This document shows, piece by piece, positions 2,300 to 41,703 of a DNA stretch of 64,000 nucleotides. A program made the translations under genes and the position numbers. The stretch lies in the NCBI GenBank assembly GCA_044228505.1, contig JBGAUT010000033.1:646-64645 (forward strand). Direction: 5' to 3'. A model generated the notes under the pieces. The model was not told where the DNA came from, did not search any database, and was given only the letters and a program-made list of their open reading frames with translations. Within the stretch, counting starts at the first letter, position 1; each line of letters begins with the position of its first letter. Source of the stretch: Polyangia bacterium. GTDB lineage: Bacteria > Myxococcota_A > Polyangia > Palsa-1104 > JAEUJZ01.

Positions 2300-3885
2300 T
2301 TAGTTCGTGTAGGCTGCTGGGGTGGTCGTGCCGGTGAGGGCTGCACCGGCCCGGACCTGAATTCTGCCAACTCCACCAGCCCCGCCCGGGTATCCCCCGC
2401 CGCAGCTTCCGGCCGCTCCTCCACTGGCACCGTTTGCGGTCACGCGGTTCGACCCAAGCGAGACAGCGTCCGAGGTCACGATGCGTACCGCGCCGCCAGC
2501 GCCGCCGCCGCCATTGCCCATGCCGCCACCGCCGCCGCCACATGGACCGCTATTGGAGCCGCTACCACCAGCTAAGCCGCTGACGTTGATCGTGCCAGTT
2601 GCCGGATCGACCGTAACGGACTTGCCGAACAGAACGACCATGCCGCCGCCGTTACCACCGGGGCCGGGGTAGGCTCCGTCCTCATCGGGACCTCCTTCAC
2701 CACCGGCGCTACCAAGGAAGATCGACTGGGTCAGGTCCTGGCCGCCCACTGCGGTTCCGGCCACACCACCACCGTGTTGTCCTCCCACCGCGATGCAGGC
2801 CCCAAGGCTGCCGTCCGCGCCAGCGGTACCTACAGATCCATAAGAGCCGCCACCGCCGGCTGCACAGTCCTGACCACGCGTGCCGCCACCGCCGCCGCCG
2901 CCGTTGTTGGCTCCCTTCGACTGTCCGTTGAGCGTTGAGAACGCCGATGGACCCGTTGAGGACTCACCGGTTCGACCGTGGTTGAGCATGCAGCCAGGTG
3001 CGCCGGGGAAGCAGATTCCCGCTACGCCTGCGCCTCGGAATCCCTTGCCTGCCATGGTGAGTGCGCCCGCGATGACCACATCCCCCTTGGCCTGGAACAC
3101 CAGGATTCCGCCTTTCTGGCCGTCCCACGCTGGAGCCGTCAGCGTGCCGGTGCTGGCGACGTTGACGTTGCCATACTGCGGAACCACGATGACCTGTGCA
3201 CCAGCTACATAGTCATACTTGAGCGGAGTCTTGAGCGTCAGCATTGTGCCGCTCACCGAAGCAACCCGGTTCATCTCATGCTGACCCGCACCGGCACCTT
3301 GCGTTTGGTGGATAAAGACGACCTGGTCGGTCGCAAATCCAGCACCGTCCCGAACCGTCAACGTGGTTCCGGTGGCAGCTCCGGTCCCGCTGGTCGCAAC
3401 CGCGTTGATGGTCTTGGTCATGCCAGCGGGTACGGCAAGATCCAGATCACTGCCATTGCCAAGCGCGCAGACCGAGGTCTGTCCCTCAGGAACCGGGCGA
3501 CCACAGGTGTACGGGGCGCAGTCTCCATCAGCAAGGCAGGTTTTACCAACCGCGCATGGGGAGCAGGTTCCGCCGCAGTCCAGATCGCTCTCTGTTCCGT
3601 TCTTGATTCCATCTGTGCAAGACGGAGCGGCGCACTGTCCGCTGACGCAGTTTGCGGAGGTGCAGTCTCCCGCCACGTTGCAGGTCGAGTTCGGATCGCA
3701 TTTGATGCAGGAGCCGCCGCAGTCTTTGTCGCTCTCATCACCATCTTTGATTCCATCGGTGCAGGACGGTGCCGCACAGACGCCTGACGAGCAGACCAGG
3801 CCCGACAAGCAGTCGCTGCTGGTGGTGCACTTGGCCATGGCTTGGCACTTGGTCGAGCACGATCCACCACAGTCCACATCGGACT
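2300..3885 (-). pseudogene. 3' part of a split gene for an exported Cys-rich-repeat/Gly-rich protein
   Basis: ORF starts mid-repeat (GTG read as M in ..SDVDCGGSC). It carries repeats SCTDGIKDGDESDKDCGGSC and SCTDGIKNGTESDLDCGGTC and a long Gly-rich C-terminus. It joins in frame to the fragment at 8903-9071. Confidence 0.85.
3871..3885. repeat. Left copy of 15-bp direct repeat AGTCCACATCGGACT (att-like or target duplication)
   Basis: Identical to 8903-8917; internal dyad AGTCC-N5-GGACT. Confidence 0.9.
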
Positions 3886-4007
3886 GTTTCTTTCGTCGAG
3901 AAGGCCGGGAACGGCTTCCCTGTTATCGATTGAGGAGGTGAGGGAAGTTAGGGAGGCCTTCCGGACCGGCTCTCTGAAACGCGGCGAAGTCTGTCGTGCA
4001 CTGTAAA

Positions 4008-4985
4008 CTAGGTCCAGGATCCGGTCTTTAGGGCGTGGGGCGAGTATTCGCCAAACCGAAATCGCAGCGACAGCGCACCGCGACGCCTCACCATCTGCTC
4101 CACCCGGAATCGCCACAAGCGCTCGGCCCCCTGAAACCGCGAGATCTCATCTCCTTCAAGCACCAACTCGGTTGACCCGGTCAGTTGCAGTAGATCTCCG
4201 CTGCGGAAATCGATGAACAGAAGGCCTGCGCGTGGGTTTACCATCAAGTTGCCGAGCGTATTGAAGTAGCGATTTCCCGCGAAATCCGGAATCGTCAGGA
4301 CTGGACCATCGATGCGGACAAAGCCCGGCTTCCCGCCACGATGAGAGAGATCGACGCCGCGCCGCGCCGGATTCCCATCGACATCGACATAGCTTGCGAT
4401 AAAGAAGGTATCAGCCGCCGCAATCATTCCCCGAGCCGCGTCATCGAGCATCGTCGCCCGCTCCATCGGCGTATCGAGTCCCGGGCGCGACGGCAAGGGC
4501 ACAGAGAGCTCACGCATCTGGATATACTGCGGGCAGTTGCCAAACGCGTGCTCCACCGTCACCGCAAATCCCTCCTGATTCAGCTCGGTCACCGTCCCGT
4601 TTGCTCGATTTCTCCGACGGGTGTGAAGCTCGATACCGAGGATTCCCACGGATGCTCCCGCAGCGAAAGCGTGGCTTACCGGATCAGCACCAGCAGGCCG
4701 CGTGGCAATCCGCAGCGTCGTGGGATCGGGGGAAGAGACAAAGCCCGGCTGACCCTCCAGCACTGTCGCCCAAGGGGCCCCTGATGGATCAACCGCGCCA
4801 ACCAGAAGGAAGGGTAGCTGCGCATAGAACAGTCGATGTTGATCGGGCATGAAGTCTCGGATGACTCGAAAGCCATGGCTCTCCATCTTCTCCGCAACGC
4901 CAAGTCGCTGCTGCAAGATGCGCTCTCCTTTGTGCCAGGGACCAGCAGACACAGAGGTAGGCGGCGTTCGATCGGATTCAGACAT
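4008..4985 (-). CDS. Pyridoxamine 5'-phosphate oxidase-like FMN-binding protein (tandem PNPOx-like domains)
   Basis: WHKGERILQQRLG, MPDQHRLFYAQLPF, HAFGNCPQYIQ, DLSHRGGKPGFV, PDFAGNRYFNTLGNL. Confidence 0.85.
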   Translation of the reverse strand: MSESDRTPPTSVSAGPWHKGERILQQRLGVAEKMESHGFRVIRDFMPDQHRLFYAQLPFLLVGAVDPSGAPWATVLEGQPGFVSSPDPTTLRIATRPAGADPVSHAFAAGASVGILGIELHTRRRNRANGTVTELNQEGFAVTVEHAFGNCPQYIQMRELSVPLPSRPGLDTPMERATMLDDAARGMIAAADTFFIASYVDVDGNPARRGVDLSHRGGKPGFVRIDGPVLTIPDFAGNRYFNTLGNLMVNPRAGLLFIDFRSGDLLQLTGSTELVLEGDEISRFQGAERLWRFRVEQMVRRRGALSLRFRFGEYSPHALKTGSWT

Positions 4986-5056
4986 GGTGGATGCTCCCTT
5001 TACCTAGTGCGGACCCATACGCAGGGTCTCTGTACAGTGGTCTCTGTTCGGTCATA

Positions 5057-5527
5057 CTAACGAACGGAATCCATGCTGCGATCCTCGTGAGGTCGTGGCC
5101 CTGGTGCCGACCAGTGAAACGTGCGCTCCGACTCCGTGATCGCCAAGTCGTTGATGCTGGCCTCTCGCCTTCGCATCAGCCCATCACTTCCAAACTCCCA
5201 CAACTCGTTGCCATAGGCACGAAACCACTGTCCCGTTTGATCATGATACTCGTAGCGGAAGCGCACTGCGATTCGGTGGTCGGTAAAGCTCCACAGTGCT
5301 TTGGCCAATCGATACTCGAGTTCTCTATTCCATTTTTGCTTCAGAAATTCGATGAGCTGCTCTTGCCCTTTCAGGAAAGTACTCCGGTTGCGCCACTCCG
5401 AGTCGTGCGAATAGGAACGAGCCACTCGCGCCGGGTCGCGTGAGTTCCACGCATCTTCGGCTGCTCGAACCTTGGCGAGCGCGGTTTCTTGGGAAAAGGG
5501 AGGCAGGAGCACGGCTGGGGGGGACAT
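5057..5527 (-). CDS. SnoaL/NTF2-like protein (DUF1348 family)
   Basis: [61 protein letters not shown]. Confidence 0.9.
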
Positions 5528-5563
5528 CTTGGACTCCGCATCGGGTTAGACCTACGGAGCCAC

Positions 5564-5580
5564 AGCAAGCCCCGCACCAG
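5564..5580 (-). promoter_or_regulatory. Sigma-54 (-24/-12) promoter for the DUF1348/PNPOx-like genes
   Basis: Minus strand CTGGTGCGGGGCTTGCT fits YTGGCACGRNNNTTGCW with GG-N10-GC spacing, 37 bp upstream of the ATG at 5527. Confidence 0.65.
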
Positions 5581-5650
5581 GCGCGAGTCCTCACGTTCCT
5601 TCCGACGAAAGTTTGGACGCTTGAGGCTCACCGAGCGTCCGCTGCCAAAT

Positions 5651-5704
5651 CACGAAGGATCGTGTTCTCACGAAGTTTCGTTGATTTTTTCACGAAAAAT
5701 CGTG
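5651..5704. promoter_or_regulatory. Three palindromic CACGA-N4-TCGT(G/T) sites, putative enhancer (UAS) for the adjacent activator
   Basis: CACGAAGGATCGTG (5651-5664), CACGAAGTTTCGTT (5669-5682), CACGAAAAATCGTG (5691-5704). Confidence 0.65.
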
Positions 5705-5716
5705 GATCATCAACCG

Positions 5717-7321
5717 ATGATGGACTCTCATGAGGCAGGCGGACTTCTGATGGATCCGCGCCGTCTGCTCTTGGATATGGCGCTACAGAGGAATGCCTCC
5801 GAGCTGCTGTGGCTCATCGTGCGGCGGCTTTGCGAAACCTCCCGCGTGGCGATGGCGAGAATCTGGCTGCTTCGTCCGGGACAGGGATGTCCAACTTGCC
5901 CGATGCGGACAGAGTGTCCTTCTCGGACGAGCTGCCTACACCTAGTCGCCAGCGCCGGGAGTTCCATGGTTCATCCGGGCGAGTACTACGCTCGGACAGA
6001 CGGAGCCTTCCGACGCTTCCCACTAGGGATTCGTAAGGTGGGACGGATTGCCGCGACCGGTGAGCCGGTAGAAGCTCCCGATCTGGCCAGTTTGCCCGAT
6101 TGGATCGTACATCCAGAGTGGGTACAGTCCGAGGGAATCAAGGGCTTTGGGGGCCAGCCACTCGTGTCCAGAGGGAACGTGCTCGGTGTGCTCGGGGTCT
6201 TCAGTCGCGTAACCATCGATGCGACGAGTCTCGACTGGCTACGAATGATTGCGGACCACGCAGCGAGTGCGCTGGCCAATGCGCTGGCCTGGGAAGAGAT
6301 CGCGGCGCTCAAGGGGCGGCTGGAACTCGACAACGCCTACCTACAAGAAGAGGTGCGAGGCGGTGGATCGTTTGGGGACATGATCGGAAGGAGCCCGGCG
6401 CTCGATACCGTAAGCCGCCAGATTCAGCTCGTGGCAGAAACGGACGCCACGGTGCTGCTGCAAGGTGAGAGCGGAACCGGAAAGGAACTGGTGGCTCGCG
6501 AGATCCATCGCCGCAGTCACCGCGCTGAGCGACCCCTTATCAAGGTCAACTGTGCCGCGATTCCGCGCGAACTGTTCGACAGTGAGTTCTTCGGTCATAG
6601 CAAAGGAGGATTCACGGGCGCGGTGCGCGATCGCCTTGGCCGCTTTGAACTAGCCGACGGTGGAACTCTGTTCCTGGATGAGATTGCGGAGATTCCCTTC
6701 GACTTGCAGAGCAAGCTACTCAGGGTCCTTCAGGAGGGCGAGCTCACACGAATCGGAGAAGAGAAGACCCGCAAGGTGAACGTCCGCATCATTGCCGCCA
6801 CCCACCGCGACCTGCGAACAGAGAGTGTGGCCGGACGTTTCCGTAGCGATCTCTACTATCGACTGAGTGTCTTCCCGGTTTCGCTCCCACCGCTGCGTCA
6901 GCGTAAGGAAGACATTCCTCTTCTGATAAAGTATTTTCTGGAGCACATTTCTCAACGACTCGGTCGGCCCACTCCCAAACTGACGTCGACCACTCTGGAC
7001 GAGCTTGTGGCGTACGACTGGCCGGGAAACATCCGCGAACTGCAGCATGTGATCGAGCGCGGGATCATCATTTCACAAGGCGGTCGGTTGCAAATCGAAC
7101 TAGCGTCTCCGCAGAAGCTCACCGGGACTCCTAGCCCTGTTCAGGACTCCCCCTCTGCAATCATGACCGACGCGCAACTGCGCACGCTGGAGGCGGCCAA
7201 CATCTCTTTGGCGCTACGACAAACAAGCGGCAAGATCTACGGACCTCGCGGGGCCGCGCAACTCCTCGGTCTGAAGCCGACGACACTGGCATCTCGGATG
7301 AAACGACTCGGCATCAGCTAA
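5717..7321 (+). CDS. GAF-domain sigma-54 enhancer-binding protein (FhlA/NifA-like, Fis-type HTH)
   Basis: N-terminal GAF region, Walker [15 protein letters not shown] (GAFTGA-loop variant), [15 protein letters not shown]-terminal [21 protein letters not shown]; start at ATG 5717. Confidence 0.9.
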
Positions 7322-7382
7322 ACCCCACTGCAGAGAGCGTAGAAACGTGGCGCAAAGTCGAGGAAACGCCTTCCTCTGCGCG

Positions 7383-8783
7383 TCAAACAGGAAGAGTCGG
7401 ATCTTCGGTGACCTGCGTGAGGAGTGATTCAAAATCCTTCGAAAGACCGGAGATGGCCGCTGCGTCGAAAAGGTCGGTGCTGTACTCGAAGCATCCGTAT
7501 AGTTCACGGCCGCGTTCACAGAACTGCAACAGCAGATCGCAAGTGGCAAAGTCGTTGTAAAGCGACATGCGATCAAGACTCCAGCCGGCAGGTAGCGGCG
7601 GTGAGGGCGGATCGAGCAGAAAGCTCACATTGAAGAATGGCTCCGCTTTCGGATCGGTGGAATATAGCTGCTGCAACTTGACGAGCGGGACGTCGGGATT
7701 GCTGACCGCCCCGAGTACCTGACTCCGAACGTGCTGGAGAATGTCACGAAAGTTAGCGGATTTGGAGAGATCGACCCGGATGAGAACTTGACTGACAAAG
7801 ACGCCGATGATTCCGCGAAGCTCTGGACGTTCCTGATGGGACAGAGCCGTTTCCACCGCAACGTCGCGCTGTCCAGTTGCGCGGCCAAGCAGCGCCAAAA
7901 ATGCCGCCATCAGTGTCACATACAGCGTGACTCCTTCTTGACTTGCGAGGGCCCGGAGGTTGTCGGTCAGCGCTTCTGAGCAGTGGAACGCATGACGGGC
8001 ATAGGCAGCAAGCCGCTTGTCACCCGGACGTACTTCGTGAACCTGCACCACGCAAGATTTGACCGCAGGATGGGTCAGAAGCGCGGCTTCGATTTCACCG
8101 AGTTCGATGCGCAGTCCACGGAGTTTGATCTGATTGTCTTGCCGACCCAAGAACAACAGGCTGCCATCGGGAAGTTGTCGCCCGATGTCACCACTTCGAT
8201 ACAGACGGGAATCTCCGTCCTTCGCAAATGGATTGGGAATGAATCTCTCTGCATTTAGTTCGGGCTGATGCAAGTAGCCGCGAGCAATTCCGACACCACC
8301 GATGTAGATTTCTCCGCTTTCGCCGATAGGAACCGGATGCATTTGCGCGTCGAGCAAGTACACTTGAACATTTCGGATCGGGTAACCAATGTTGGGAGGC
8401 AACCTGTCAGAAGTGCAGTGGAGCAGTGTTGTGCAAACGGTGGCTTCGGTGGGACCATATTCGTTATAGAGCGCGCCTCTTTTTATCCAGGCCTGTGCGA
8501 TGGGGGCCGGGCATACCTCTCCGCCCACAACGACGGTCGTCAGATCAGGCAGTTGCTTTTCGTTGAGCGCCCCGAGGATTGTGGGCGTCATCGAAGCGAA
8601 ACTGATTCTGGCCACTTTCATGAAGTGCTGAAGCTCGACCGGATCTTGTGCTTGCTCTGTAAGTGGAATGCACAGCGTTGCGCCGCTGCACAGCGCCAAA
8701 AACAGGTCCGATCCGGCTGCGTCAAAGCTGATGGATGCAAGCTGCAGAACTCGGCATCCTGGTTCGATTCGCGCGGTCTGCAT
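7383..8783 (-). pseudogene. Chimeric NRPS remnant (partial adenylation domain fused to the C-terminal half of a condensation domain)
   Basis: A-domain motifs SISFD, NEYGPTEATV, YRSGDIGR, GRQDNQIKLRGLRIELGEIE. No A3 (YTSGSTG), no PCP and no HHxxxDG. Second half resembles a C-domain (VTLYVTLMAAFLALL, IGVFVSQV, FEYSTDLFD). Confidence 0.8.
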
Positions 8784-8902
8784 GCGCTGCTCCGTTCAAT
8801 GTGCTACTCCGCTAGACCACAAGTTGCCGACATAGGAGTGTCCCGCTGACTTCCCGCGGATCATGAGCAAGTCCGTGTCTCGACGGTGAAATTCCGACAG
8901 AT

Positions 8903-8917
8903 AGTCCACATCGGACT
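8903..8917. repeat. Right copy of 15-bp direct repeat AGTCCACATCGGACT
   Basis: Identical to 3871-3885. Confidence 0.9.
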
Positions 8918-9071
8918 CTGTTCCGTTCTTGAGCTTGTCGGTGCAGGTCGGCATGATCGTGCAGTCATTGCCGCTGCCACACTCGGTGGTGTTTGCCTCG
9001 CAAAACGGGAATACAAATCCGGCAATTCCGGCCAGCAAGATCGGATAGAAACGCTTAAGTGTACTCTTCAT
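8903..9071 (-). pseudogene. 5' part of the split Cys/Gly-rich exported-protein gene
   Basis: MKSTLKRFYPILLAGIAGFVFPFC (signal-peptide-like) followed by TCTDKLKNGTESDVD, the first half of the repeat unit whose second half (CGGSC) is at 3870 and below. Confidence 0.85.
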
Positions 9072-9184: not shown

Positions 9185-9754
9185 CTAGAGACTATTTGTC
9201 CACGCCGCTTGTGTGGTTACGTATAGGACATGGCGACGCAAAGGATGCCCCTCTGGAAGACGAGGATGCTCGAAGGTACCATCGGTACTGTAGCGAAAGT
9301 CAGGACGAAGACCGATCCGTTGCATGACGCGCAGTGATCGCACATTGGCTGGAACCGTGCAGGCATAGATTTCGTCCAAGCAGAGCTTTGTGAATCCGTA
9401 AGCGAGGGCGGCCCGGGCTGCTTCCGTCGCAATTCCTCGGCCCCAGGTGGCTGGGGCGAGTCGCCATCCGATCTCTACACAAGGGGTGAAGGCAGCGGTC
9501 CAGGTAGGCCGAACCAGACCCACACATCCCACGAAGGACCGCTCACCGGGAATCTCGACGGCCCATAGTCCAAAGCCGTGCTCGACAAAGTGGGCACAGA
9601 TGCGATCCATCAACGCATCACTTTCCGCTCTGGATAAAGTCCCAGGGAGATGCTCACAGACCAGAGGGTCGGAGTTTATCGCAAAAAAATCGTCACGATC
9701 CTCTTCCCGAAGCGGCCGCAGAAGGAGTCGCTGAGTGAGCAACGTACTATCCAT
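9185..9754 (-). CDS. GNAT N-acetyltransferase (RimJ/RimL-like)
   Basis: TQRLLLRP, VEIGWRLAPATWGRGIATEAA, NVRSLRVMQRIG. Confidence 0.9.
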   Translation of the reverse strand: MDSTLLTQRLLLRPLREEDRDDFFAINSDPLVCEHLPGTLSRAESDALMDRICAHFVEHGFGLWAVEIPGERSFVGCVGLVRPTWTAAFTPCVEIGWRLAPATWGRGIATEAARAALAYGFTKLCLDEIYACTVPANVRSLRVMQRIGLRPDFRYSTDGTFEHPRLPEGHPLRRHVLYVTTQAAWTNSL

Positions 9755-9775
9755 GCGCTGCCTACCTACCATATC

Positions 9776-11371
9776 TTAACGTGCGACCTGTTCTGGAAAA
9801 TGATGAGAATTGGTGGTCTGCTGCATCACCGGTCGCTGCATCTGCCGTTGCTGCGTCTGCCGTTGCTGCATCATGGGACCATTCCCACTGCTGGGAATGG
9901 TCGTAGATGGTTGTAGTTCGTGGGGCTTGATGTCTCCCCAGCGAGCATCTGTATCATGGACGTTTCGTGACCGTAGGAAGACGCCGAACTTTTCATCTAG
10001 CTCAGTGACATTCACTTCCATTGCTGCCGCTACTACCGGGCCAGATGGCTTGTTGGGAGACGAACGAAGGGTCGCGTAGACTTTTTGCAGGGGACTCCTT
10101 TCGCCACTGCCATACATCCACAGCGCGGCGTAGCGTGACAACGCATCACGGAGCCGAGGATTGCTCGGGGGGGTGTCGTGTAGCAGACCACTGAGTGACA
10201 GAACTGGAGCGGATTTTTGCTCGACCAGCAAATCGTACAATCGATAGTTGTCGATGGGCTGTCCTTGCTCATTCTGCTCCTCGAATAGCGAGGCAATGCC
10301 TTCGTTGAGCCAGTGCGGAGTCCTCGGTGCATCGCTATCGATCAGTGCGTGAGCCAGTTCGTGCGCCGCCGTGCCGAGATACAGCTTGCCATTTACGTCG
10401 AGAATCCCTTTGCGCAGGACCACACTGTGATCGAGCGGAGAGTAGTAGCCCTCCCGGTTGGATGAAGGTCTGCCGTGAACCGCCAGCGACAGAGCGTTCG
10501 CCGATTCCTCCGAATACTCTGTGTCCAGGTTGGCGTAGACTACGACCAGTGGGGGCTTGTCCTTGCGACCTAGAAGCTCTGTCCATAGCCGCTTCTGAAT
10601 GGCGGACAATTGTTTCGCGACGCGTATCGCATCCTCCTGCTTGCCGAGGGTTGCGATGACTATCTGCTCATGGACCGCAGTCGTCGGAGGTGTACCAAGT
10701 GGGGTGAGCAGATTGACGGCCAACGCCTGCGCAGATTGCGGGAATCGAGTCAGTCCGACCCGAGCCATCAGCTTGGACTTTTCTTCACTGGTAAACGGTG
10801 TCTCGGGTTCAGGTGCGCGTGCCCGATGAATTCCTCCTTTGGAGCTGTGCGCCCACAGTCGCATGCCTCCTTCTGGGACGCTTCCTTCGCTTCGCGCTGG
10901 TTCGTCTCTAGCGTCGCTGGCTGCTGAAATTCGAATGCCGGAAAAGCTGCGGAGGTGGCTGGCGATCGGTTGTCCCTTCCAGACGGCTGTAGCGCTCCCA
11001 AGCTGTGGATGACGCTGACACTCGTTGAGGATCACTTGAGCGTCAGCGGCTGCATCGGACAGATACAGGTATAGGCCGATCCGAAACAGGTAGACCGGAT
11101 AGAGGCCGCTTGTTTCGGAAACGCTTGGGAGCTGCTGGGCCAGTCTGCGTGCGGCCTCCGCAAAGGCCGCAACTCTATTTTCGCGCAGTGCAGGCTGTCG
11201 CTTTTCCTGCGCAAGCAGCGTCTCTCCTTTGCTGACCCACTCTTCGGTGTCGGCGCTGACTTGTGCTGTGGCGCTGAGTGGCAGCAGCGTCACAGAGGAA
11301 AGGAGTCCCAAGCCGAGCCACATTCCCACAGCGCGAGCAGACCGGGGCTTCCAATGCTGAGAATCGATCAT
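9776..11371 (-). CDS. Exported protein with a HExxH zinc-metallopeptidase-like motif
   Basis: N-terminal signal-like segment, AHELAH followed by PHWLNEGIASLFE, Gln-rich tail. Confidence 0.6.
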   Translation of the reverse strand: MIDSQHWKPRSARAVGMWLGLGLLSSVTLLPLSATAQVSADTEEWVSKGETLLAQEKRQPALRENRVAAFAEAARRLAQQLPSVSETSGLYPVYLFRIGLYLYLSDAAADAQVILNECQRHPQLGSATAVWKGQPIASHLRSFSGIRISAASDARDEPARSEGSVPEGGMRLWAHSSKGGIHRARAPEPETPFTSEEKSKLMARVGLTRFPQSAQALAVNLLTPLGTPPTTAVHEQIVIATLGKQEDAIRVAKQLSAIQKRLWTELLGRKDKPPLVVVYANLDTEYSEESANALSLAVHGRPSSNREGYYSPLDHSVVLRKGILDVNGKLYLGTAAHELAHALIDSDAPRTPHWLNEGIASLFEEQNEQGQPIDNYRLYDLLVEQKSAPVLSLSGLLHDTPPSNPRLRDALSRYAALWMYGSGERSPLQKVYATLRSSPNKPSGPVVAAAMEVNVTELDEKFGVFLRSRNVHDTDARWGDIKPHELQPSTTIPSSGNGPMMQQRQTQQRQMQRPVMQQTTNSHHFPEQVAR

Positions 11372-11377
11372 TGTTCA

Positions 11378-12190
11378 TTACCTAACGATGGGTAGTTGTT
11401 CATTGGTCGGAGTGCGGACAGAGTGCGTGTCTGGCTTATTGGGAATCGGTAGGACAGCGGCAGGAAGCGGCGCGGTGGCAGCCGGAATCGTCTGAACGAT
11501 AGGTTGGACGGACCCGGATGAGGTCGTGGGAGGACTCGCTGGTGTTGCCAGTTGAATCGGTGCTGCATGTGGGGCCGCAGTGGTGGTTCCCCCTGCCAGC
11601 CGTTTGAGCACAGATTCGGCGGCTCGCTCCCCACTTGCTGCCGACGGCGCTGCTTGTTCCATTCGGTAGTCGAAGGGAGTCCGATGCGTGACGCAAACTC
11701 CAACGAGTAGCAGCGTTGCGGTCATCACGAACACACCCGGTGACATCCGCGCCACCTTGAAGCCAAACGTCTCTGTACTCCCGCTGGCTTCAATCTCACC
11801 TTTGACACCAATGAGAAACAGTCCGAATCCAAGGAAGCCGAATGCCATTGCAACGAATACTCCGCAGGACAGCAGTGCCAGGCGGGCTGAAACCAGGGCT
11901 GCGTTGATCCCGAGTTGAATCAAGACCTCGGTGACTCCGGGGGTTCCTGCACGGGCCAAGAGTCCATCGATCTTGGTCATGGTGGTCGACAGAAAGGTGT
12001 AGAGATACAGAGTCGATGACGCCAGACAGACCGCTGCCAAGATCAAAGCGAATATGAATCCCACATTAAGAATTCGTCCTGAAAACTTGTGACCAGCGCT
12101 GGGACTGTCGCTGGGGAGCGCTCTTGGCGTCGCGGCGATGCTGGCGGGATCAGTAGATGACAGTTGGGGCGGTGTGTCTGCGGTGGCCAT
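11378..12190 (-). CDS. Hypothetical membrane protein (about 3 TM segments, Pro/Ala/Thr-rich tail)
   Basis: Long ORF with three hydrophobic stretches; stop lies 7 bp from the next gene's start. Confidence 0.6.
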   Translation of the reverse strand: MATADTPPQLSSTDPASIAATPRALPSDSPSAGHKFSGRILNVGFIFALILAAVCLASSTLYLYTFLSTTMTKIDGLLARAGTPGVTEVLIQLGINAALVSARLALLSCGVFVAMAFGFLGFGLFLIGVKGEIEASGSTETFGFKVARMSPGVFVMTATLLLVGVCVTHRTPFDYRMEQAAPSAASGERAAESVLKRLAGGTTTAAPHAAPIQLATPASPPTTSSGSVQPIVQTIPAATAPLPAAVLPIPNKPDTHSVRTPTNEQLPIVR

Positions 12191-41163: not shown

Positions 41164-41703
41164 TTACGAAAGATTCGGACTTCGCGGCAGGTTCCGCACC
41201 GTGATGCCAAACCTGTTTTGAAGCTGGTCGCCATTACCGACCCAGGCATGGGCTTGATCCAGCCAGCGGATGCGACCCTTGAGCTGATCGGTCAACGAGA
41301 GCAGCGCAATCTGCGCACGATCTTTTGGCAAAAAAGAATGCTCGATCAGTGCCAAGACGCGGATCGACTGGCTACTATCAGCTAACTTTTGGGCATAACG
41401 CTCATAGCTGGAGATCTGTTTGCGGAAGTGGCCAGCGAGTAGTCCCGCCACGGTGGCAACGACCTTTTTGCCAATCGAGCGAGAGAGCTCGCCGCTCGTG
41501 ATCTTTTCGCGGTTTTGGCTGGAGTAGCCGCGAAAGTCTTTGACCTCGATGAGCAGGAGCTGATCTTGCGGACTGATGGCCACAAAGTCGACCGCTTCAT
41601 GCTCACCTAGATGCTGGGTGCGGAAGTTGTCTTCATCGTAGTGAAGCACTTCCCAGCCATCCGGAAATAGCAATTTCTGATCTTGCTCTTGGAAGGTCGG
41701 CAC
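41164..41703 (-). CDS. Small protein with PD-(D/E)xK nuclease-like motif
   Basis: AVDFVAISPQDQLLLIEVKDFRG (D-x11-E-x-K); 5 bp downstream of the ATPase gene. Confidence 0.65.
   Translation of the reverse strand: MPTFQEQDQKLLFPDGWEVLHYDEDNFRTQHLGEHEAVDFVAISPQDQLLLIEVKDFRGYSSQNREKITSGELSRSIGKKVVATVAGLLAGHFRKQISSYERYAQKLADSSQSIRVLALIEHSFLPKDRAQIALLSLTDQLKGRIRWLDQAHAWVGNGDQLQNRFGITVRNLPRSPNLS

Follow-up and report, generated by a model that had tools for sequence, protein, structure and literature searches.

A surface-protein gene split by a probably mobile, integrase-less cassette in a Polyangia genome

The DNA analysed here, 64,000 nucleotides that we refer to as the window, is part of the genome of a Polyangia bacterium (G000; 6,776,125 bp in 106 contigs), in which it occupies positions 646 to 64,645 of contig C33. 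Close to the start of the window a gene for a secreted protein is split by a 5,032-bp insert, and it is this insert, its ends and its relatives in other genomes that are described below. Both parts of the gene lie on the minus strand: the N-terminal 51 codons at 8918-9071 encode a signal peptide and the start of a first repeat, and the C-terminal 528 codons at 2300-3885 encode cysteine-rich repeats 2 and 3 (CTDxxKNGxESDxDCGG) followed by a glycine-rich, AgmC-N-like domain. The broken gene appears as two open reading frames (ORFs) on that strand, one at 8796-9071 that reads MKSTLKRF...TCTDKLKNGTESDVD and then continues into unrelated sequence at the right end of the insert, and one at 2300-3877 that begins VDCGGSC. 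An identical 15-mer, AGTCCACATCGGACT, stands at both junctions, at 3871-3885 and 8903-8917, exactly where a first-pass annotation of the sequence had placed it; a sequence search finds only these two copies in the whole assembly, and the identity ends at 15 bp, with no extra matching base on either side. Removal of 3886-8917, which is the insert with one copy of this core counted, joins 2300-3885 to 8918-9071 in a single frame of 1,740 nt and 579 amino acids, and restores a third xCTDxxKNGxESDxDCGGxC repeat. The protein matches the NCBIfam model NF047640 (gliding_AgmC_N) at 101 bits, under the curated cut-off of 275. Judged from its sequence, the split gene encodes a secreted, AgmC-N-like Cys-repeat protein that would be inactivated by integration and restored by precise removal of the insert.

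Public assemblies, which show presence and not proportions, contain this locus in an empty form, an integrated form and a head-to-tail form of the insert by itself. The exact 579-aa protein is encoded by an uninterrupted gene on JGI contig Ga0209174_10018543, the DNA of which is 99.8-99.9% identical to window positions 9507-8903 and 3885-917, and the two alignments overlap by exactly the 15-mer, present once in empty sites. A pattern scan of metagenomes recovered a second exact empty site, on Ga0075163_10032556, as well as empty sites in relatives of about 90% identity; the scan was not exhaustive, since it missed the contig Ga0075163_10051647 described below, and nothing is concluded from it as to whether a sample has no filled junction. 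Comparison of the reconstituted protein with related Myxococcota identifies an intact 579-aa orthologue in G003, a genome of the same genus, with 95% identity over the C-terminal 525 amino acids, a single copy of the 15-mer, and the same outer neighbours as the split gene (RecQ and, on the opposite side, a 525-aa protein). The orthologous frames of G001, G005, G006 and G007 are also open and uninterrupted; in G001 and G007 the first repeat has TETDID in place of ESDVD, and the site is therefore confined to the clade of G000 and G003.

The split junction, in which a 91-aa N-terminal fragment is followed by the insert, recurs on 13 or more contigs that stem from independent runs and assemblers, among them Logan SRR35242012, ENA ERZ27257534 and WBZS01005008; the first of these is a 20-kb contig collinear with the window from 881 onward, across the whole insert. 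Misassembly, which the first-pass annotation had put forward as one of the findings that would undo its reading, is thus excluded. A look-up of the DUF1348 protein encoded in the insert brought to light the head-to-tail contigs, in which 3886 is joined to 8902 through one 15-mer: JGI Ga0075163_10051647 (5,069 bp with identical 34-nt ends), Logan SRR35242003 (5,065 bp with 30-nt, or k-1, ends), Logan SRR32051696 (5,062 bp, or 5,032 plus 30) and ENA ERZ27258521 (a MEGAHIT k141 contig). Their unit length is 5,032-5,035 bp, and because the junction is found in a k=141 contig and by three assembly pipelines it must be present in the reads. Of the two products for which a search had been proposed, the empty site is therefore represented in assemblies, and the circular 5,032-bp form has a counterpart there in the head-to-tail units. 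Three Logan unitigs of exactly 5,047 bp span 3871-8917; by our own reasoning on k=31 graphs this is the length to expect where chromosomal and head-to-tail junctions coexist, and filled and empty alleles alone should yield 5,077 bp.

The empty, integrated and head-to-tail forms all share more than 99.6% identity, and the JGI head-to-tail contig and one of the empty-site contigs have the sample prefix Ga0075163 in common. An empty contig (L075) and a filled one (L051) carry the same haplotype of single-nucleotide polymorphisms (SNPs) in their flanks, different from that of the window, so that presence or absence of the insert does not represent a deep lineage split. The proposal that excision acts as a switch for the surface protein gains from these data precise empty alleles, one of them with the flank haplotype of a filled allele, but there is no sign that a single cell line switches often or under regulation. 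We note that contig L061 (ENA ERZ27257534) has an A>G change within its left core copy, equivalent to window position 3878, and its two cores are no longer identical; if identity of the overlap is required, this filled copy may be locked in.

The ends of the insert are arms with homologues elsewhere. The left attachment arm (3886-3966, plus strand) consists of an 8-bp spacer, CGTCGAGAAGG and then GGGAA/CTTCCC blocks, and the right attachment arm (8815-8902, plus strand) of GTCCCGCTGACTTCCC ... ATCATGA ... TCTCGACGG and a 16-bp spacer. With nhmmer profiles built without the window's own cassette, the left-arm profile (11 other loci) matches 3958-3894, with an envelope to 3966 (E=3.5e-8), and matches nowhere else in the window; the right-arm profile (8 other loci) matches 8827-8886, with an envelope from 8815 (E=2.2e-6, 23.5 bits). 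Genome-wide, the right- and left-arm profiles match 29 and 28 sites, and strict regular-expression patterns of the arms match 11 and 13 sites as against none in a shuffled genome. The right-arm blocks of the family, TTCCC-N-C-NN-ACTTCCC ... TTTCTCGAYGG, are present in the window as a divergent subtype, and the left arm contains the left-arm blocks CTTCCC ... GGGAA ... TTCTCGAYG in inverted orientation. Homologues of the window's left arm are the left arms of a circular-form contig of G003 and of an element in G004 (contig C85), both described below, and the last ~68 bp of the right arm recur in G000 (on C51 and as a relic on C18) and in G004. The C18 copy (G000:C18:31990-32025) is a 36-bp, 94%-identical, intergenic solo copy of the cassette's right-arm subtype that includes CCGACATAG, and is probably the relic of a related element. 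A marginal match to the right-arm profile was also seen at window positions 41647-41678 (E=0.027), near an ATPase gene.

The left and right arms are imperfect inverted repeats of each other, and the 8-bp subterminal inverted match at 3894-3901 and 8878-8885, previously described as weak, is real and proves to be the most conserved block of the arms throughout the family. When the ends of the insert are joined through one copy of the core, the two inverted blocks stand as TCTCGACGG-N39-CGTCGAGAA, with the 15-mer at positions 17-31 of the 39-bp spacing. The family-wide form of this arrangement is TCTCGAYGG-N39-CRTCGAGAA, and by count the same spacing is found in five other sites (G000:C2, G000:C68, the G003 circle, a decayed element E' and the reconstructed attP of G004:C85). 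This fixed geometry argues that the 15-mer is an integral, positioned part of the attachment site. A search for other segments bounded by the 15-mer's AGTCC-N5-GGACT motif, also proposed earlier, found no genome-wide enrichment, which is rejected with 7 sites observed and ~6.5 expected. No dif-like 28-bp site of the 11-6-11 type is evident by eye at the junctions, the dif sequence of the host not having been determined.

The autonomous members of the family associate these arms with integrase genes. In G004:C113 a PF00589 tyrosine integrase gene has its stop codon immediately before the right arm, and a kinase gene interrupted at its HRD/LKP codons directly adjoins the arm. The PF00589 integrase genes of G000:C17 and C2 end ~45 bp ahead of the right arm, and at G000:C51:231-330 the arm follows a C-terminal integrase fragment at the start of the contig and abuts kinase sequence. 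By tblastn the integrase of G004:C113 has in G000 at least 11 paralogues of full or nearly full length, at 33-54% identity, none of them on the contig of the window. Among NCBIfam models the family integrase yields sub-threshold matches to generic Xer/XerA models, far below all curated cut-offs, and the integron-integrase model is not matched. No integrase or transposase is identified by Pfam within the insert, and no homologue of the family integrase on the window's contig, in agreement with the first-pass annotation. Unlike the autonomous members, the window's element has no PF00589 integrase gene before its right arm (3886-8902), and it is therefore a non-autonomous member of the family. 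Just inside the right arm, 8790-8835 on the plus strand may be a vestige of the last ~14 codons of an integrase gene (..QCATPLDHKLPT and stop, ending CCGACATAG as in G004:C113); the alignment is weak and not significant, and hints that an integrase gene once stood beside the right arm.

Most relatives split Ser/Thr kinase genes at the HRDLKP codons. Arms of the family abut kinase sequence at these codons in six places in G000 (C51:231-330, C9:147260, C30:43578, C31:60931, C41:1127 and C103:2827). The target of the window's cassette is instead the ESDVDC codons of a secreted Cys-repeat protein, not the HRDLKPxN codons of a kinase, and this site has GTCCAC and ACT in common with the kinase sites, a loose match. 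The cassette further differs from the kinase-splitting members in its perfect 15-bp core and in the occurrence of all three DNA forms at strain-level identity. An instructive relative splits a kinase gene at HRDLKPEN in G004:C85 (L092, ~9560-12150); it is a 2.6-kb cassette without an integrase, and its two genes are of unknown function. It is flanked by an imperfect 23-mer, CACCGCGACCTCAAGCCGGAGAA and CACCGAGATACTTAGCCGGAGAA, in which identity is limited to the last 10 bp, as in attP x attB hybrids with a crossover near the left arm and unlike a target duplication. An odd, unoccupied-looking site at G000:C38:41141-41310 has two motifs of the left-arm type that face each other, with a 31-bp kinase-like core between them, in place of the usual pairing of a right and a left arm at N39. 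No description of such elements in Myxococcota turned up in full-text literature searches, and the cassette belongs to a large, multi-copy and apparently undescribed family of mobile elements, the members of which normally encode an integrase of their own.

These relatives bear directly on whether the insert could be a non-autonomous DDE-type transposon, resembling a miniature inverted-repeat transposable element (MITE) or a mobile insertion cassette (MIC) with cargo, which would have ~80-bp imperfect terminal inverted repeats and a 15-bp target-site duplication and would form copy-out circles. The arms are indeed imperfect inverted repeats, and an ISL3-like transposase is present in the genome. 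Circle junctions of insertion sequences (IS) of the IS3 or IS30 type consist of the ends with one repeat copy between them, which the head-to-tail junction resembles. However, the arms of autonomous members adjoin tyrosine integrase genes and not transposases, the G004:C85 repeat has attP-derived and attB-derived halves, the G003 circle has the core although the G003 surface-gene site is empty, and two different cassettes occupy the identical site. The family thus does not present exact copies of an arbitrary target or a transposase as partner; its partner genes are integrases. To our knowledge no transposase except casposases makes a fixed 15-bp stagger, and no search for Cas1 was made here. 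We regard a transposon of this kind as very improbable.

The second cassette at the site is seen in an 87%-identical relative (L080, Ga0209174_10007770), in which a right junction lies at the same 15-mer of the surface gene. Only the last ~68 bp of its insert are in common with the window's, and the interior beyond them differs. This sister cassette assembles as a 6,899-bp cycle (L095 and L096, Logan SRR35672367 and SRR35672341) with genes for a 1,417-aa LTD-CotH protein, a 341-aa protein without a Pfam match and an esterase of the polyhydroxybutyrate (PHB)-depolymerase type; there is no integrase gene among these three called genes. Its form in G003 (G003:C194, L090) reads right arm, AGTCCACATCGGAtg, left arm, with the same core as the window's cassette, and this circle bears the core while the surface-gene site of G003 is empty. 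The sister cassette is also found inserted in the attachment site of E', a decayed member of the family whose integrase gene is reduced to its last ~50 codons (L093, L094, L102), and there it uses a second, arm-less core, TGCCCTAGACTCTC. The core of E' itself, AGTCT-GCCCT-AGACT, has the same AGTC-N7-GACT dyad as the core in the window, and to a limited extent favours an overlap of 7 bp between short inverted core sites. Orthologous E' elements that have the same arm type and adjoining DNA of ~88% identity differ in their cores, GGTCTACTCCAAACT in G000:C2 and AGTCTGCCCTAGACT in L093 of the G003 lineage, as would fit a rewriting of cores by the sites that have been visited.

We consider it likely that 3886-8917 is a non-autonomous integrative cassette of a tyrosine-recombinase family, comparable to a cis-mobilizable element (CIME) and moved in trans by a family integrase. 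The circular form would carry a single attachment site of ~170 bp, composed of right arm, 15-bp core and left arm, and an integrase encoded elsewhere in the cell would recombine this attP with the identical 15-bp sequence in the ESDVDC codons, splitting the surface gene and leaving one copy of the core at each junction. The reverse reaction would remove the cassette precisely, restore the 579-aa ORF and release a 5,032-bp circle. Strand exchange probably takes place in the 7-bp CACATCG that is flanked by inverted AGTC/GACT, and the cassette most likely arose by loss of the integrase gene from an autonomous ancestor. The first-pass annotation had likened the 15-mer to a recombinase core and suggested a non-autonomous cassette integrated by a trans-acting recombinase, and it is supported in this by the family arms and by the PF00589 integrases beside right arms.

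Several observations weigh against this reading. Free circles and tandem copies look alike in the head-to-tail contigs, and since the cassette has no replication gene (Pfam), an abundance of free circles would demand that excision be frequent. The empty allele, instead of being a product of excision, could represent an ancestral polymorphism. Among 40 relatives the cassette's arm subtype is never found beside an integrase; it is restricted to the window's cassette, the 36-bp relic on C18 and the G003 circle. In IMG/VR, nothing was found in a search by arm subtype for a cognate integrase. The right arm scores 23.5 bits compared with the 50-60 bits of integrase-adjacent arms, and on account of this and of the arm subtype the copy in this genome could be stranded. 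Finally, the AGTC-N7-GACT dyad is not seen in the kinase-targeting cores, so that the crossover model rests on two cores.

The ambiguity of the head-to-tail contigs gives rise to a different account of them, in which unequal exchange at the 15-bp repeats produced a chromosomal tandem duplication that was then expanded by RecA, with no free circle; the insert would still belong to the family, but its excision at the present day would not follow. Our own graph reasoning is that tandem arrays and mixtures of circles with integrated copies should give the same k-mers, and the 5,047-bp unitigs and cycles cannot discriminate between them; the cassette is without a replication function, and a regulatory and enzyme module selected for its dosage is a plausible target of amplification. 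Two Logan contigs, however, are isolated cycles without a branch to chromosomal flanks, one JGI sample gives both an uninterrupted gene and a closed cassette contig, and the 6.9-kb sister cassette behaves alike at two different sites. Amplification without a free circle therefore seems to us rather unlikely, and a mobile cassette acted on in trans is the reading that we retain.

The cargo consists of four ORFs, assigned with Pfam and NCBIfam. On the minus strand, 4008-4985 encodes a 325-aa, two-domain flavoprotein of the PPOX/PNPOx type (PF01243; TIGR04025-like) and 5057-5527 a 156-aa DUF1348, or SnoaL-like, protein (PF07080, E=8e-63). Divergently from this pair, 5717-7321 on the plus strand encodes a 534-aa GAF-domain sigma-54-dependent activator (PF00158, PF13185 and PF25601, and NCBIfam). 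Between the divergent genes a pattern match identifies a sigma-54-type promoter-like site, TGGTGC-N5-TTGC, at 5565-5579 on the minus strand upstream of the DUF1348-PPOX pair, and at 5651-5704 lie three CACGA-N4-TCGTK palindromes (a motif without strand) that are candidate enhancer sites for the activator. This arrangement suggests that the activator, the DUF1348 protein and the PPOX flavoprotein form a self-contained, self-regulated sigma-54 module. Alongside it, 7383-8783 on the minus strand encodes 466 amino acids of a nonribosomal peptide synthetase (NRPS); here the adenylation domain is represented by its C-terminal part (PF00501 positions 202-384), which is fused in frame to the C-terminal half of a condensation domain (PF00668 positions 226-440) without a peptidyl carrier protein (PCP) domain. 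The frame is open and more than 99.5% identical across all copies; even so, it is probably a dead remnant. No donor or orthologue of it is found in the relatives, identity to any relative being 50% or less. An extension of adenylation-domain homology to the junction, indicated by tblastx, was rejected, as the right arm makes up the last ~90 bp, with perhaps the vestige of an integrase 3' end just inside.

The three genes of the putative module are ordinary chromosomal neighbours in relatives. In G003 (C637) the trio is 87% identical and adjoins a gene for a 1,123-aa TPR Ser/Thr kinase, and it is also found in G001, G008, G013, G016 and G018. In G000 the trio is present only in the cassette, and G000:C18:335325-340232 has the orthologous kinase gene followed by the ISL3-like transposase; the difference between G000:C18 and G003:C637 is possibly a trace of cargo capture. 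Since the trio is chromosomal in relatives and the NRPS piece has no orthologue, the cargo is a mosaic of captured chromosomal DNA. That the insert is a copy of a retained source locus was rejected, the insert being single-copy in the genome.

Cargo of this nature would also fit a one-off illegitimate or microhomology-driven insertion of a random genome fragment, the alternative to a recombinase that the first-pass annotation had offered, and with which an assembly artefact may be grouped. The ordinary chromosomal trio, 87% identical beside a kinase gene in G003, and the broken NRPS gene at one end of the cargo are in keeping with this, and by our own estimate tens of 15-mers can be expected to be shared by chance between a 5-kb circle and a genome of 6.8 Mb, which makes one such match no rarity. 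But the junctions are reproduced in many independent assemblies, the ends match the family arm profiles and give exactly N39 when joined, a second, unrelated cassette is present at the same site, and precise empty and head-to-tail forms exist. Microhomology recombination fails to explain the conserved arms, the fixed geometry and the second cassette, and we give a one-off event or an artefact hardly any credence.

Among known systems, the mobile cassette proposed here is most readily compared with the CIMEs of streptococcal integrative conjugative elements (ICEs) as well as integrative mobilizable elements (IMEs), which are defined by the retention of att sites and the loss of integration genes (PMC5704250). 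Like these, the cassette is flanked by attL and attR, with identical 15-bp cores that have family arms on their inner sides; it lacks integration and transfer genes, its four ORFs being those of the PPOX flavoprotein, the DUF1348 protein, the sigma-54 activator and the NRPS remnant; it presumably decayed from an autonomous element, and it would need a related integrase. The accretion and nesting of CIMEs have a parallel in L093, where the att site of a decayed relative from the family contains a cassette. Unlike CIMEs, no conjugative parent is evident here, conjugation genes not having been searched for in the autonomous members, and the cassette's site is inside a protein-coding repeat, with inactivation of the gene, rather than at a tRNA gene or the 3' end of a gene. 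The cassettes are also small (2.6-6.9 kb) and numerous, occur head-to-tail alone and not only in tandem with a helper, and would be mobilised in trans and not only in cis.

Phage lambda provides a second comparison. Its att sites combine a 15-bp common core, bordered by arms to the left and right, with a 7-bp overlap between inverted core sites, and the family described here resembles the lambda-type systems in its 15-bp attP/attB identity, its large two-armed attP and its probable 7-bp overlap between short inverted core sites. In contrast to lambda, the cassette has no integrase or excisionase gene, the cores differ with the target, and there are many paralogous integrases per genome. With the gene cassettes of integrons the likeness is that of cargo-only circular units with one structured recombination site, an external tyrosine recombinase, and adjacent or nested cassettes. 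However, exchange here would be central in a ~170-bp site with two ~80-bp arms and not in the R' box of a folded attC, the units have several genes with their own promoters and a regulator, the family integrase is only generically Xer-like, and the targets are coding sequences rather than an attI platform. It is tentatively suggested, as a possibility that we hold to be doubtful, that the family constitutes a cassette-exchange system comparable to integrons, with cargo-only circles of 2.6-6.9 kb and a two-armed attP of ~170 bp whose core is rewritten by the last site occupied, so that cassettes could move on from the catalytic-loop codons of kinases to genes of other kinds, among them the surface-protein repeat in the window, and into one another, and host genes would be turned off and on reversibly by their insertion and precise excision.

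Integrase-less elements flanked by att sites are usually taken as dead relics; here the empty, integrated and head-to-tail states are found at strain-level identity, a sister cassette occupies the same site in a diverged relative, and the genome contains about thirty arm pairs and at least 11 integrase paralogues. Together these point to a cassette system in Myxococcota that is active and present in many copies, with targets inside coding sequences, both the catalytic loops of kinases and a surface-protein repeat. If this is confirmed, the system would be a means of mobilising chromosomal gene modules, and a heritable yet reversible form of gene inactivation in a lineage known for its huge kinase repertoires. 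The compact attP/attB pairs with differing cores would further be candidate orthogonal recombination tools.

The split gene is itself flanked by a dienelactone-hydrolase (DLH) gene at 1381-2175 and a GNAT gene at 9185-9772. The DLH gene is missing from the G003 lineage and has no flanking repeats, and the GNAT gene persists in G003 as a 79-bp relic and is therefore ancestral. Both were considered as further insertions and rejected as such, being unrelated to the cassette, and the neighbourhood of the split gene is in flux independently of it.

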